Shown here piece by piece: positions 2,361-11,430 of a stretch of 64,000 nt of DNA. The number at the start of each line of letters is the position of its first letter. Position 1 is the first letter of the stretch. The stretch is from NCBI RefSeq assembly GCF_006345805.1, contig NC_043014.1, positions 25,048,001 to 25,112,000 on the forward strand, given 5' to 3'. The notes below the pieces were generated by a model, which was not told the origin of the DNA, did not search any database, and saw nothing but the letters and a program-made list of their open reading frames with translations. Position numbers and translations under genes: made by a program. The DNA comes from Octopus sinensis. Taxonomy: Eukaryota.

Positions 2361-3900
2361 ATCATCATCATCATCATCATCATCGTTTAGCGTCCACTTT
2401 CCATGCTGGCATGGGTTGGACAGTTCAACTGGGGTCTGGGAAGCCAGAAGGCTGCACCAGGCCCAGTCTGATCTGGCAATGTTTCTACAGCTGGATGCCC
2501 TTCCTAACGCCAATCACTCCATGAGTGTAGTGGGTGCTTTTTACATGTCACCGGCACAGGTGCCAGACGAGGCTGGTAAACGGCCATGATCGGATGGTGC
2601 TTTTTACATGCCACCGGCACGGAGGCCAGGTGGGGCTGGCAACGGCCATGATTGGATGGTGCTTTTTACGTGCCACCGGCACGGAGGCAAGTCAAGGCGG
2701 TGCTGGCAACGGTCACGTTCAGATGGTTCTCTTATATGCCACTGGCACGGGTATCACAGCTACAATTTCCATTGATGTTGATCGATTTTGATTTTGATTT
2801 TCACTTGCCTCAACAGGTCTTCACAAGTAGAGTTTTGTGTCCCAAGAAGGAAAGGTATGCATAAGTGGACTGAGGCCATGGGTTATGGTCTCACTTGTCC
2901 TGCCGGGTCTTCTCACGCACAGCATACTTCCAAACATCTCGGTCTCTAGTCATTTCCTCGTTGAGACCTAAAGTTTGAAGGTAGTGCTTCACCACCTCGT
3001 CCCAGGTTTTCCTGGGTCTGCCTCTTCCACAGGTTCCCTCAACCGCTAGGGTGTGGCACTTTTTCACACAACTATCTTCATCTATTCTCACCACATGACC
3101 ATACCAGCGCAAACGTCTCTCTTGCACACCACAACTGATGCTTCTTAGGTCCAACTTTTCTCTCAAGGTACTTACACTCTGTCGAGTATGAACACTGATA
3201 TTACACATCCATTGGAGCATACTGGTTTCATTTCTTGGGAGCTTACGCATATCCTCAGCAGTCACGGCCCATGTTTCACTGCCATGTAACATGGCTGTTC
3301 GTACACATGCGTCATACAGTCTGCCTTTTACTCTGAGCGAGAGACCTTTTGCCCCTAGCAGAGGTAAGAGCTCTCTGAACTTTGCCCAGGCTATTCTTAC
3401 TCTAGCAGTTACACTTTCAACACACCTGCCCCCGGTACTGACTTGGTCACCTAGGTAACGGAACCTATACACTATTTCTAGTTTTTCTCCCTGGAAGTTG
3501 GTCTCAGAACATTTTCAGTGTTTATTGCTCCTGAGCATCTGCCACATACAAAAACTATCTTCCTAGTTAACCTTCCTTTGACATTGCTGCACCCCTTATG
3601 TGTCCATAGCTTACACTTGGTGCATCTTATAGAGTTTCTACCTACGCCTTTTCTACAGATCAAACAGGGCCATCTACTTGAAGGCTTAGCTAGGTTGACT
3701 TTCAATTCTAATCCTTGCTTCCACACCTGAAACTTCTCCCCCAGTGACTCAGTGACTCAGCAATTAGAGCAAGGTCATCAGCATAGAGGAGCTCCCAGGG
3801 GCATCCTGTCTTGAATTCCTCCATTATTGCCTGGAGGACTATAATAAATAGGAGGGGGCTGAATACTGAACCTTGGTTGACGCCTACCTCTACCTGGAAT
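2361..3900 (-). mobile_element. 5'-truncated RTE LINE with (GAT)n tail
   Basis: RT QGSVFSPLLF...YADD (3708..3900), PHD-like Cys cluster (3478..3726), C-terminus 2891..3472, 3' UTR with hairpin repeats, tail seen as (CAT)n at 2361-2383. Confidence 0.93.
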
Positions 3901-4117
3901 ATACATATATATATATGTATGTATATATGTGTATGTATGTACATATATATATTTATGTATATATATATATATATTTATGTATAGGTATATATATGCATGT
4001 ACATATATATATCAATAATAAAGTGATTGTTTCTTATCTGGAACAAAATGTTTAATAGGACTGCTATAGAAGTGCTCAATTAAATGAGACAAATGTATTA
4101 AACTATGGTTGCAGAAC

Positions 4118-5159: not shown

Positions 5160-5388
5160 ATAAGGTGATGTTATGTTGCCAAATTAATGTGGCAGTCCCA
5201 TGAAAGAGAAGAATGCTACTGCTATTTAGCCCTAGGATATACTGTTTCATGTTGGCCTTGATACATTTCCTGTGTCCTTATATTTTCAAAGGGGAGATAA
5301 GCACCTCCTCTCAGCAAAACCAGCATTCAGAGACTAGTTTCAGAGACATTACTCATCATCAGTCTGGAGTAGCATGGCTTGCTAGCTG
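5160..5388 (-). repeat. partial ~345-bp hammerhead-containing repeat unit (retrozyme-like), left flank of the Tx1 LINE
   Basis: homologous to 10570-10793 and to the inverted copy in 10807-11250. Confidence 0.88.
5325..5368 (-). ncRNA. minimal type I hammerhead ribozyme, GUC cleavage triplet
   Basis: minus strand tccaga-CTGATGA-tgagtaatgtctct-GAAAC-TA-GTC-tctgaa; palindromic stem III ACTAGT. Confidence 0.8.
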
Positions 5389-5390
5389 AA

Positions 5391-8300
5391 TTTTTTGTTA
5401 AGACAATAAATGTCACACATAGATGGTACAGCACAGGACAACACATGCCAAAAAGTTAATATGAGTTCAAATGATCCTTATTTAAAAATTTTAATGAAAT
5501 GATTAATTTTAATATATAGCCTTTTTCCTTTTGGGGAGAGGTTTATGCCTGGTTACCTCAAAGGCCCAGCAACTACTCCTTTCCTTTTTTTTCCAATGCA
5601 GATTAAGTAGGGTTACTTGCACCTACATTTCTTAACACAGACTTCCATCTTTCCTCAAACACACTTCACGACAGGATCCTCCTCTCCAGCCCTATCTTGC
5701 TCTTCAGATGATATCTGAAGAATTGTAGCAAACCAGGGCCAGAGATGAAGGATCCTGTCATGAGTCCTTGCATTCTAGTCTTCCACACACATTCTTTCAG
5801 CACAACAACTGTACAGAAAAGACATACCTCACCTTCCTTCAAGAGTCCAGTTGGTAATACAATCTATATTATAGATTTCACCAATAGCTGTACTCTTCCC
5901 AAAAATGTGCTGGATGGTTTCATCGTCCAGCCCACATCTTGGACACGTTATTGGCACTGACATTCTGTGTCTGGATAACTTATCATGAACAGGTAAAGCA
6001 TTCCTGTAGCACTGCCAGGCCAGAGATTTTTGGTAAATATCCAATTACCCTGGTCCGAAAGTTTTTTCAAACAGGTTGGTAAGTTGGTTCTCATCGAACC
6101 CCAGAGCCCTTCCTAGGGCGCCATCGTTTTTGTACTCTACCAGCCTTCTTTACAAAACTAAGGTGATATTCCCACTGCCGGCATTGCCCATCTTGTGGAT
6201 AAGCATGAGTGCCTGTCAACACTCCTTTTGCTATTCAGTCAGATTACATCTTTTAATGAAACTAGGTTTAAATTGCTTCAAAGAGGCTCGTCGTGGAAAG
6301 AATTCCTCTGCCAGCAGATTCCACACCTTATCACCCTCCAGGTAATGCAAGAGATACCTCAGCCTCAACGCATGCCTGCACATCATTAACCAGAGCATCC
6401 CTAAACCACTCTTTAATGGTTCCTGGCAGCAAATGGAGCACCTCACAAGTGGCTTTCCTCCCTTCCACAAAAAGCAGAAAAGGAGGCACTCCAACTTGTT
6501 TATCCACAAATTGGGGCAAGGGACAACAGTCAGGTACTAGGTGATGACATGCAATAAACATCTGTACCACCTCTGCCCTTCCTTTCAAGGACACAGCCCT
6601 TTGTTCCAAGTCCGTACTAGAGTCTCTACCTTGTCTGCCACCTGTTCCAATTCTTCTCCAACTGGGAGTCTGGTCCAAACCAAACTCCAAGCAACTTAAC
6701 TGGACCATCTGTCCAGTGACTCATGACACTGGATGATATCGACTTGCTCCTCCAGGTGCCGAGGCACAAGCTAATGGACTTGTCCTTGTTAACATTTGCC
6801 CCTACCACTGCCTCGTATCCTTTGATAGCACCCTTTACTCAAGGTAACTGCACTTCATTGGACACGATGAAGGTGATGTCATCCGCATAAGCAGAAACAG
6901 ACTTACCGCATCTGATTTCATTAGGATTGCCTCTCAACTTCTCCAACTTCCGCAGCAATGGCTCAAGAGCCAAAATGTACAGAAGTGGAGACAGGCAACA
7001 CCCTTGACAAACTGAGTGCTTGATTGAAAACAGCTCTGATAGATAAACGGTTGTTTATCTGGATGGTGGATTTGATGTCGCTGTACATGCCGGAGATCCA
7101 CCTATGGATGTCCAGGCCCAGCCCAGCCACTTTGAGGACCACTGCCAGTTACTGGTGGTTTACCCTATCAAATGCTTTACTTTGGGCTAAATGGACCATT
7201 GCCTCACCTTTACTGGATAATTTACCAACCCTGTCTAAGGTGTAGCATATAAGGTAAAGATTGTCCTGGATCAACCTGCCTGGGATGGCACATGTCTGTG
7301 CCTTTCCTACAAGTTTCTCCACGACAGCTGTCAACCTTTTGGCAAACACCTTGGCCAAAAGCTTTAACTCTACATTAAGTAGAGTTATGGGCCTATAATT
7401 ACTATTATACCCCTTTCTTGGATCCTTCTGGATCAATGTCACCACTCACAGAGCTGGGAATCCTCCCATTCCATTGCTAGTTTGTGTAGACGCTGGCCAG
7501 CAGGTCCCCAAACAAGTCCGGCATGCTACGATAAAACTCATAGAGTAGATCATCCAGCCCTGGCACACTTGGCCAACACCTCTTTTACTTCCGCAGGAGT
7601 AATCGGTCCTTCACAGCACTTCGCCTCCTGTGCCAAGAGTCATGGCCCACCAGCTAGAAAGTCCTTTAAGGGCTCCCCAAGCTCAAGTGCTCTGCTTTAC
7701 CCAAACAACCGGGTGAAATGCTGGTGAAAGGCCCTTTGCATCATTTCCTGTCCATAGATCTTGCACCTCTGTTTGTCAGTTAAAAACTTTATAGAGGCTT
7801 TTTCGCCCTTATAACTCTCCACACAACTTGCCCATCCAGCAATGTTAACACTTCCTCAACCCTGCATGTAACTTAGCTCTAACTGTGCTACCTTCATGTT
7901 TGGCTTTGAGGTGACGGTACAAGGTCATTGTCGCTGCCTGCACTCTTGAAGCAGAGCCAGAGTCCATAGCCTCATCTAAATTCTTAACTAATTCCCCTTC
8001 TCTTCTAGATCTATCCAAACTTAGCTGATTGCTAAATCTAATAGGCTCTAAACGAATGGCTCTCTTGGAGGCATGCTACCATCTATTATTAATGATGGTG
8101 TCACATAGTGCCCTCTGTACTAACTCCTTAATCCGGGCACGGAAGACTTTACAAGTCAAAATAAACTTGTTCATCTCCAAGTACCCAGGTCCCTGTCTTT
8201 GACATTTATCTGCGTACCTCACACATCACAAATTTGTGGTCCATGTAAGGTACAATAAAAAATCATGGACATCTAAATGTATCCCTATCTCTAACAAATA

Positions 8301-10434
8301 CCCTATCTATAGAAGATCTGTGAAGCCGTCGTTATTACTCCACGTCCACTGTGGAATGCTTGGTTCATCCAGTCTATAACGGTCTACTAGATTATAGCTC
8401 TCTAGTAGTCTTTGAGGCCAGGATTTCCTTTCCTATCAGTTGAGCCAACACCATCCACCCGTGCATCAAGGATAGTATTAAAGTCTTCTAACAGAACTAC
8501 TGTTTTTGACATCACTAGAAACTGCTCCAGGTCTCAAAAAAAACCAGACTGCCCACACTCGTTAGGAGCATAGACAGCTACCAACCTGATGGACTGTTTA
8601 ATCTTGTGGGTCACATCCAGGATGACCAGCCTACCTTCTGGATCCAGAAAGACAGTACTAACTTGTACATCCAAGTTCTTCCTGAATAAGACCACCACAC
8701 CCCCTCCTCCTTGTCAGCTAGGAGCAATAAATTTTTCATAGCCATTCAAGAGAGGCAAGAACGCTTGTGGTCCACTCATTTTGGACTCAGTTACGATGCA
8801 CACATCTATATCATGTAACCTGAGGTCATCCAAGAAACAAGTTTGTTTCCATTACGACCCCAGACTGCACACATTCATGCACCCTAACTTAATCGACATG
8901 GTATAAAAATTTTAAAGGGGTACTTACAATTTAAGTTGGGGGAGGGGCTGCACAAATCCGCCTACCTCCCCATCTTTCTCTTTAGATGGTGTAGCTGCTG
9001 GGCTTTTTCTAGGTGTGGCAGCTGGACTTACAATAAGCCTCCCCTCTGTCACATCAGAGCTAACATCTCTTATATCCTCATGATAGTGAGATTTCAGCTC
9101 TGGAAAAAGGGTTCTCTCCATTTTAGCAAATCTTACATCTTTTGGTTTGTCTTTATTTTGTTTATAAGTTCTCACCATGTGATGGTGTTTGATCACTTTT
9201 GCTAATGGTTCATTATTTTCCTTGAACATCACAATTTTTCTTGTATTTTGGGGAGGAGTTTGGCAAATGGGGTTGGATTGGGGAATTTGGTTTTGTGTGT
9301 TTGCTGTCATTTTTGTTGATTTTTTTTTTGTTTGGGGAGGGAGTTGCAAATGTGTATTTTTTCTTCTCTTATGGGTGACTGTGGGGAGGTCCATTTCTTC
9401 GTTGTCTTTACTCGTGTCTGCTTTAGTTTCTACTTCATCTTTCTTTTTTTGCATTTTACTCTTTGTTGTTCACTTCCTTTGTCATGTTCTTTTCCTTCTT
9501 CCCGTTTGCAGCTTTTTGGGGAGGGGCCTCACCATCTTTTTTTTGGCGCATTTGGAACGGATGTAGCCTTCTCTCCACATTTGAAGCATCTGAGCCTATG
9601 TCCTTCTACCAACATATGAATTGTATGCCCCTCCCCTACAACACCCTATCAGGTAAATTTTGGCCGCTTGAATGACCATTTCCAAGGATTGTCCTCACCA
9701 GTTTACCACATCTTTTTTCCTCATTTGTAGGATTGAAATTTCTTCCTCCACATCGTACACTACTGCAGCTACTACCCACTTTAACTCATACCCTACCGAG
9801 ATCTCTTCCACTGTCACTTTTGTGGTCCTGCGACCCAAGTCAGTGGGCAGCAGCATTATCTCTTCATTCTTCAACGTTTGTGTTGATACCTCCTTGGCTA
9901 TGCTAGCCAACTCGAAATGTGACTCAATTGGGGCACTTCTTGCTCCTCAGCTAACGTAGCGTACTTTATTCCAGATAGGTGCCATACATTTTTTTACTGC
10001 TTCATTTTTTTACATCCATTATACACTTTTCTTTGATGTTATAGGCTTTGTACCCAACTGTTTTCACATTAATGGCTTGTACTGTCTCAAGGGGTGGCAA
10101 CAACTTGGTCTCCACTCCACTTTTTTTAATTAGATTTCTAAGCTTGAAAAGCTGGTCCATTGTTACTTCAAGTTCTGTAGCATTGCCGCCCATGCGGTTG
10201 AAAAACTCTGTTTTTCCTTTGTATCCTGCTGGTTCACAGTTGCATTTCCTTTTCCTATCTCAGGAAAATCCTTTTTCTGCCCCGTAGGGTGAAAATTACA
10301 GTTTGTCAAAAGACAACAGTTCAAATTCGGGTAAGGTATATAACAAATAGCACAAATGTACAAGAAACAGATAGAAACGAACTCACATAACGCAGGATAG
10401 CAAAATGAAAATAACGTGTCACAGACGAAGAAAG
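5391..10434 (-). mobile_element. near full-length L1/Tx1-clade LINE, inactivated by many stops and frameshifts; 15-bp TSD gcatggcttgctagc (5372-5386 and 10435-10449)
   Basis: ORF1 with CCHC-type knuckle CFKCGEKGYIRSKC (~9545-9590); ORF2 from ATG ~8899 with APE endonuclease, RT (YRPITLLNVELKLLAKV, KAFDRVNH, YADD ~6880) and C-terminal CPRCGLDDETIQHIF; short A-tail at 5391-5396. Confidence 0.9.
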
Positions 10435-10734
10435 GCATGGCTTGCTAGCAGTCGATGCTCATTCGCCTTTGAAAACAAATATATTTCAAATGAAATACCT
10501 TCACTCATTTCAAAAATAGAAATATTGCATTTCTAAATCCCTCAGAGATATTTATACAGTAGCAGCATGATAAGGTGATGTTATGTTGCCAACTTAATGT
10601 GGCAGTCCCATGAAAGGGAAGAATGCTACTGCTATTTAGCCCTAGGAAACACCGTTTCCATTTGGTCATGACACATCTGTGTCTTTAGGTTTTCAAAGGG
10701 GGAGATAAGCACCTCCACCCAGCAAAGCCAGCAC

Positions 10735-10776
10735 CCAGAAACTAGTTTCAGAATCATTGCTCATCATCAGTCTGGA
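10735..10776 (-). ncRNA. minimal type I hammerhead ribozyme, GUU triplet
   Basis: minus strand ccaga-CTGATGA-tgagcaatgattct-GAAAC-TA-GTT-tctgg. Confidence 0.75.
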
Positions 10777-11000
10777 GTAGCATGGCTTGCTAAGTGTTCA
10801 TGCTCATAGCATTCTTCCCTTTCATGGGACTGCCACATTAAGTTGGAAAAATAACATTACCTTGTACTGCTACAGTATAAATCTCTCTGAGAGATTTAGA
10901 AATGCAATATTTCTATTTTTGAAATCAGTGAATGTATTTCACTTGAAATATATTTGTTTTCAAAGGTGAATGAGCATCTACAGCTAGCAAGCCATGCTAC

Positions 11001-11043
11001 TCCAGACTGATGATGAGCAATGACTCTGAAACTAGTTTCTGGA
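11001..11043 (+). ncRNA. minimal type I hammerhead ribozyme, GUU triplet
   Basis: tccaga-CTGATGA-tgagcaatgactct-GAAAC-TA-GTT-tctgga; stem I 6 bp, stem II gag/ctc. Confidence 0.78.
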
Positions 11044-11430
11044 TGCTGGCTTTGCTGGTTGGAGGTGCTTATATCCCCCTGTGAAAACACAAGGACATAG
11101 AAAATGTGTTCATGGCCAACTGGAAACAGTGTTTCCTGGGGCTAAATAGCAGTAGCATTCTTCCCTTTCATGGGACTGCCACATTAAGTTGGCAACATAA
11201 CATCACCTTATCGTACTGCTACTGTATAAATTCTCTGAGAGATTTAGAAATGCATTTCCTTCTTTCCTGAGCGTCCAATAATACTATATTTGTTACACGT
11301 CCTCGCGTTGTTGTGTTTTTTTTGTGCTTTCTTGTTTGGATTAACTTCATATATATATATATATATATATTGGTAAATATATCTGTTAAATTGAAATGTC
11401 AGTGTTATTTTCATTTTTGTGTAATTTAGA

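Follow-up and report, generated by a model that had tools for sequence, protein, structure and literature searches.

A decayed long interspersed nuclear element (LINE) of the L1/Tx1 type lies inside a hammerhead-carrying retrozyme in a 64,000-nucleotide stretch of the 2.7-Gb Octopus sinensis genome (assembly GCF_006345805.1, contig NC_043014.1, positions 25,048,001 to 25,112,000), which we call the window. We conclude that the lineage of this LINE inserts, repeatedly and independently, at one base of the retrozyme and that this base is probably the transcription start site of a small nuclear RNA (snRNA)-type Pol II promoter from which the LINE would be transcribed. An earlier note on this stretch had suggested that the LINE family targets retrozymes, and a census of flanks strongly supports this: 38 of 39 older copies, scored against reference units that for three of the five target families (P, T, and Q) were derived from these same LINE 3' flanks, and 37 of 40 copies matching a young subfamily are on target, compared with the more than 20% of flanks in one sequence type by which Tx1-type targeting is recognized (PMC4494074). 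The site recurs throughout the tabulated flanks, and the chance nested insertion that the note had raised as an alternative is not borne out.

Structure of the Window Copy and Its Target

The 15-mer GCATGGCTTGCTAGC occurs three times in the window: at 5372-5386 and 10435-10449, around 5,048 bp of minus-strand LINE in which both open reading frames (ORF1 and ORF2) are broken, and once more, inverted, as an empty site at 10983-10997. Both the 15-bp target-site duplication (TSD) and the uninterrupted target described in the earlier note are therefore present, and the TSD stretches to 17 bp if one mismatch is allowed. The features of the LINE and the surrounding retrozyme, including its hammerhead ribozymes (HHRs), are as follows.

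5160..5386, minus strand: downstream retrozyme part, beginning with the 3' TSD, containing an HHR and ending in a (TA)n tract; 89% identical to the empty unit
5326..5368, minus strand: predicted type I hammerhead, 19 nt past the LINE 3' end; cut expected between 5332 and 5331 (GUC)
5372..5386, minus strand: 3' TSD copy; 17 bp (5372-5388) with the shared CA counted
5387..10434, minus strand: decayed full-length L1/Tx1-type LINE with an AATAAA-type 3' end lacking poly(A)
5597..8893, minus strand: ORF2 remnant (APE endonuclease, reverse transcriptase [RT], C-terminal zinc knuckle), in at least eight pieces in different frames
8960..10270, minus strand: ORF1 remnant, placed by mapping to a young relative, in which it has a CCHC zinc knuckle
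10435..10449, minus strand: 5' TSD copy, the putative first nucleotides of the retrozyme transcript
10435..10807, minus strand: 1.1 upstream retrozyme units, recognized by sequence
10734..10776, minus strand: upstream predicted type I hammerhead (GUU), 300 nt before the LINE 5' end and upstream of the promoter-like element listed below; fold z -3.1
10807..11254, plus strand: inverted head-to-head arm of the retrozyme cluster, Penelope-style, recognized by sequence
10981..10997, plus strand: empty target site, recognized by sequence
11001..11043, plus strand: predicted type I hammerhead of the empty unit (GUU); fold z -4.5

The window LINE is dead, carrying frameshifts and stops, and its nearest copies are at most 90% identical. 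Its ORF2 pieces show 58-80% identity in tblastn searches with the ORF pieces of a young relative as queries; Pfam finds RVT_1 on a window ORF2 piece, and the other domains were placed via the young relative. Young relatives carry Exo_endo_phos, RVT_1, and zf-RVT in ORF2 (Pfam), as L1-group elements do, and a separate 511-aa ORF1 frame with zf-CCHC, which together with 15-18-bp TSDs agrees with the L1 group. The best match in the PDB is human L1 ORF2p (E 1.5e-39), the closest named proteins among the matches listed are from cephalopods, and no Tx1-named protein appears among the 120 and 45 matches listed or in Atlas. Two further LINE remnants lie on the minus strand of the window: a fragment at 2891-3974 that resembles the C terminus of another LINE ORF2 and has no Pfam match, and a distant ORF1 relative (38%) at 30773-31261.

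We called HHRs from the CUGAUGA/GAAA/UH core, stems, and folding; an Rfam scan of the window at gathering score returned no match and no HHR. By core sequence, two HHRs bracket the LINE as the earlier note had it. The 345-bp unit period that it gave holds as well, whereas its array amounts to 1.7 tandem units and a 1.3-unit inverted arm. The downstream HHR has one stem I mismatch and a U-U at the base of stem II and folds weakly (z -0.4). In its extended stem I, the 5' strand is formed by the TSD, so LINE insertion leaves this HHR whole. The retrozyme part that holds it terminates at the same position as free units, which form partial tandems with an inverted arm and fixed end positions in (TA)n.

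Five target families carry the LINE: W (that of the window), P, T, Q, and Y. Their units are tandem, noncoding, 170-400 nt long, and below 45% GC, each with a type I HHR that passed a strict pattern in W and Y and was read by eye in P, T, and Q. Families W, P, T, and Q are at most 70% alike, the sequences at the cut site differ between all five, and unit Y measures 362 bp and has an HHR carrying U3:A8. Contigs of uncertain kind from four runs (three organisms) cover the Y element, some of them with the empty site. Among 30 + 20 GIY-YIG loci (of 5,029 candidates), none has a retrozyme unit as the terminal repeat of an RT+GIY-YIG element. Intact Penelope-like elements encoding 775-781-aa RT+GIY-YIG proteins (L241-L249, L255) have (TA)n ends and, near the 3' end, an HHR-like core of the U3:A8 type as in unit Y; they are candidate retrozyme mobilizers.

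Recurrent and Independent Insertion

Searching with the LINE 3' end, we obtained 44 matches out of 1,152 candidates, scored 40 of them, and tabulated flanks from the fetched stretches. Among the older relatives, 32 of the 39 intact 3' ends run into an HHR unit, six into the target start (13-16 nt) followed by the 5' end of another LINE, and one into neither; four further older pieces without an intact 3' end stand outside this count. On the other side, the target half precedes 17 of 18 distinct 5' ends. A search with a 14-nt 3'-end pattern was overwhelmed by chance matches, and a metagenome scan for related loci yielded 28 pattern matches, none of them confirmed.

More LINE lineages use the same target sites: past the LINE 3' end at L116, L126, and L132, a further family, whose ORF1 starts MGEVV, stands behind the same target start. 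A sister LINE, 66% identical, ends in (TATC)n microsatellites (L102:345-2790; L131:140-2620). At L125 (G000:C5:40736400-40737450), L108, and L116, head-to-head LINE 3' ends occur or an inverted unit adjoins a truncated LINE, arrangements that may stem from deletion or rare co-transport.

The young subfamily, which we also call Y, is ~80% identical to the window copy in ORF2; its copies are 97-99% identical to one another and mostly full length (35 of the 40 matches). Genome-wide, 34 of 39 exact Y 3' ends lie in unit Y, compared with 1,061 exact sites that are empty; ~3-4% of the Y sites are occupied, and the chance of landing on one is 2e-7 per random insertion. One 29-kb cluster (G000:C3:72500871-72529901; L123, L081-L083, L121) has all five of its target sites occupied by full-length LINEs of different haplotypes and is possibly a hot spot.

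LINE insertions into retrozymes are independent of one another. TSD pairs agree within a locus and differ wholly between families, so each TSD is fresh; in-target truncated copies (L017, L129, L198, L193) retain the upstream half and the TSD; and of 432 variable sites, upstream units carry the variant of their own cluster at 423 and disagree with it at 9, when 31% differ between clusters. LINE haplotypes are scattered over the unit variants, with some association, and copies within one array differ, by 3-13 (the C3 array), 8, and 37 shared variants, differences that assembly polishing could blur. A rolling-circle origin of the five-copy C3 array, with its head-to-head arrangement and apparent 15-bp outer duplication, was dropped because the haplotypes differ.

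U1-Associated Relatives and a Recent Target Switch

Relatives of Y that appear to be off target make up a basal grade, Z, beneath a monophyletic Y (100/98), and this nesting implies that the target switch is recent. At one Z locus (L292, 6859-7022), the LINE abuts a U1 gene, identified by Rfam, exactly at +1, and the U1 promoter lies upstream. At another (L294, 1560-6854), a full-length LINE occupies an ATACTT site between two U2 genes and is preceded by U1 nucleotides 1-17, a sequence that six empty paralogs of the locus lack. From this copied leader, the L294 LINE RNA most likely started at +1 of a host U1 gene. The L294 endonuclease differs from that of Y at ~12 of 240 residues, none of them in the beta-hairpin. 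No LINE 3' end of the W/P/T type was matched at U1.

An snRNA-Type Promoter Motif Upstream of the Insertion Site

The insertion at U1 +1 and the copied U1 leader led us to examine the retrozyme sites for an snRNA-type promoter. We built a 14-nt matrix exclusively from the upstream flanks of 12 U1 and 2 U2 genes, where the motif lies at -59 to -61; 12 of the 30 U1 loci entered the matrix after near-identical copies within clusters had been thinned, with L329 and L353 left out. The search was confined to -80 to -30 (an unconfined first search picked up a distal element). The best plus-strand site falls at -58 to -65 in 13 of 17 filled retrozyme targets and at -54 to -62 in 17 of 19 free W units. 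Among held-out snRNA genes, the ATCAGTG core sits at -57 to -59 in 11 of 12 U5 and 9 of 10 U4 loci (the latter near-identical) and in none of 12 U6 loci, so the motif is confined to Pol II snRNA genes. A proximal element ~60 bp before +1 is common to U1, U2, U4, and U5, and from its position we label it the proximal sequence element (PSE). Once the shared CA is included, the TSDs measure 17-18 bp, and their first base lies at the -60/-61 spacing in W, P, T, Y, and U1. The window contains these elements:

10498..10511, minus strand: PSE-like element, the best matrix site, 62 bp before the 15-bp TSD (60 from the 17-bp TSD); 12.1 bits, 4/200 shuffles as good
10697..10712, minus strand: at -263, weakly matching the distal element of U1; 8.5 bits, 30/200 shuffles as good
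10921..10934, plus strand: PSE-like element of the empty unit; 17.4 bits, 0/200 shuffles

The distal U1 motif, found at -257 to -273 at U1, recurs at -273 in Y (22 bits, 0/200 shuffles) and at -272 in one W unit. Motif and spacing together indicate that the insertion point likely equals +1 of an snRNA-type promoter inside the retrozyme. Ten of 88 cluster-arm 5' ends of unit Y fall at positions 99-107 (L262-L289 and others), a 9-nt stretch ending the distal promoter-like motif. U6 loci L366, L371, and L374-L377 have another upstream motif, ATGCAAAT-like and near -78, with a TATA near -30, unlike U1, U2, U4, and U5.

Proposed Mechanism and Alternatives

Under our reading, the LINE would be transcribed from the host snRNA-type promoter, giving an RNA composed of a 17-nt target leader, the LINE, and a read-through target trailer. 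The endonuclease would nick promoter-occupied +1 sites, and the trailer would pair with the nicked strand to prime reverse transcription at the LINE's own 3' end, in which case the target family of the donor copy would be favored. Because the duplication leaves the downstream HHR whole, this HHR may cut the trailer, by prediction ~55-62 nt past the LINE end; alternatively, cleavage could be directed by the nearby AATAAA. An extra A at the 3' junction of L293 fits trailer priming. In each of the two direct LINE-TSD-LINE pairs, private changes are fewer in the copy on the side of the promoter (1 vs. 20 and 7 vs. 11), and this copy looks the younger, as though insertion had recurred at a place where the promoter is followed by the 17-nt start and not by the HHR.

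Several observations weigh against this reading. The remaining four of six Z copies occupy ATACTT/TATA look-alike sites that lack the motif at -60, so insertion does not require a promoter, and only 1 of 30 U1 and 0 of 22 U4/U5 loci among those fetched hold this LINE. The motif sites of Y, T_L094, and P_L095 have singly no advantage over shuffles (15-111/200); three P sites, with the core at -63 and low scores, and one W site are not best matrix matches, and many rows are near-copies. The promoter function of the retrozyme motif is read from motif and spacing, the copy ages come from two pairs only, and the run contigs of uncertain kind give no RNA ends. Lastly, 24 older truncated copies have the downstream unit without the upstream target half; a composite TSD is missing from them and (TA)n is often present on just one side, which fits later deletion, although occasional co-transport may have contributed.

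Target choice is possibly steered by the read-through RNA. In this extension, which we put forward tentatively and consider somewhat unlikely, the LINE would be brought to active snRNA-type promoters, the HHR-trimmed trailer of the donor would pair with the nicked +1, and a copy landing in a new promoter-bearing repeat would found a lineage with a new target and an unchanged endonuclease, the U1-to-retrozyme-Y switch being a recent example. If so, the target would be reprogrammable by changing ~17 nt of RNA. We regard as less likely still, and rather improbable, that the endonuclease of each sublineage reads a short site sequence, as in Tx1L and R1Bm, with +1 kept only because copies there get expressed. 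Such recognition would account for the Z copies at ATACTT-like sites without the promoter motif, for the (TATC)n tracts of the sister LINE, and for LINE clades that follow target families (10 label changes vs. 23.7 shuffled, 0/200), with crossings mostly between P and T, which both have CTCTAGC. It is at odds with the lack of any in-register sequence common to the W/P/T, Y, and U1 sites and with an endonuclease hardly altered across a U1-to-Y switch as recent as the position of Y within Z implies.

The earlier note had favored another route, in which a multimeric retrozyme co-transcript is cut by HHRs on both sides, freeing and possibly circularizing the LINE RNA. All in-target copies do lie in the retrozyme sense with an HHR downstream, the young copies are largely full length, and some arrays, one of them the head-to-head array of five copies, alternate LINE and unit without an empty site. 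We nevertheless consider this very unlikely. The upstream HHR lies upstream of the promoter and would not be part of a transcript begun at +1, which makes excision from both sides unnecessary; upstream units were never converted to a donor variant (the 9/432 against 31% above); tandem arrays hold different LINE haplotypes; the L294 leader is limited to the 17 nt of the target start; U1-associated relatives need no HHR to transpose; and the HHR cut shows no excess of cluster 5' ends (3/88 at 60-64). DNA traces of LINE circles were not found, and a DNA-level test for an R2-like ribozyme-made 5' end was negative, with no Rfam ribozyme in the window, no leader conversion, and a copied leader starting at +1. 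Borrowed transcription, which the note had also proposed, has indirect support, through the snRNA-type promoter with +1 at the insertion point, and not as a ribozyme-released co-transcript. Most improbable of all, and largely refuted as the main route, is a single ancient fusion after which LINE and retrozyme traveled as a composite via Penelope-like machinery. The 24 truncated copies just described, the head-to-head LINE ends at L125 and L116, and the inverted unit adjoining the LINE at L108 would suit it, yet the composite form is found in none of the young copies, a composite TSD is not above chance (mean longest match 5.6 vs. 5.4), TSD pairs match locus by locus and differ between families, and copies in P and in T are intermingled on the LINE tree.

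Relation to Known Systems

Our comparisons draw on the available portions of the cited sources. Tx1-clade elements target, for example, Tx1D (Tx1L), U2 snRNA (Keno), Mariner-N4_AMi (Tx1-Mar), and microsatellites (Kibi/Koshi), and the targets given there (U2, U5, 5S, satellites, microsatellites, and transposons) do not include retrozymes or U1 (PMC4494074). The octopus LINE shares with target-specific Tx1 elements an APE and RT, a CCHC ORF1, a fixed site in a multicopy repeat, tandem reinsertion, and a microsatellite-targeting sister lineage. It differs in that the target is an HHR retrozyme, with five families plus U1 used in one genome, and in that the site coincides with the promoter-like +1 rather than, as in the Tx1 cases described, with a conserved internal sequence. 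Like R2, R1Bm, and SART1, it would depend on host transcription (PMC5035012, PMC4494074, PMC7265360), and for R1Bm and SART1 priming is more accurate when the RNA carries downstream target sequence (PMC7265360). R2 has its own HDV-like 5' ribozyme and a restriction-like nuclease, whereas in this LINE no ribozyme was found and none would be needed at the 5' end. Overall, the system appears to work like target-specific Tx1 elements with an R2-like dependence on host transcription.

The target units resemble non-LTR (long terminal repeat) retrozymes (PMC7229834; bioRxiv 10.64898/2026.07.22.740005) in their 345-362-bp tandem units, GC of 38-45%, single type I HHR, lack of an ORF, and range from monomers to ~22-mers; they differ in having a U1/U2-type promoter motif and a LINE landing site, neither of which is described in the available text of those sources. 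A precedent is newt satellite 2, an HHR repeat with an internal snRNA promoter used by Pol II (PMC2220036), alike in both respects, though from a vertebrate and with no targeting LINE mentioned in the portion available. By analogy, this suggests that HHR repeats of different phyla share this type of promoter. As in Penelope-like elements (PMC8557442), the clusters combine partial tandem copies with an inverted 5' arm and finish in (TA)n. By contrast, none of the 50 loci inspected had a unit as the terminal repeat of an autonomous element.

Position is set relative to the start of small-RNA genes in Ty3 and Dictyostelium TRE5 too, by Pol III factors at tRNA genes, whereas the motif described here belongs to the Pol II snRNA type and is missing at U6 loci. 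In the literature searched, with Repbase entries, subscription journals, and supplements outside its scope, we found no report of a retrozyme-targeting or start-site-targeting LINE; the retrozyme target class, the +1 rule, and U1-retrozyme switching did not turn up in that literature either.

These observations add ribozyme retroelements to the target classes of site-specific LINEs, a parasite of a parasite, and give a lead on the promoter and the transcription start of invertebrate retrozymes, left open in the available portions of the literature. Site-directed insertion is a possible use. Furthermore, the lineage can be seen switching targets while its endonuclease stays almost the same, and the young Y subfamily makes the question of how non-LTR elements change targets directly testable.
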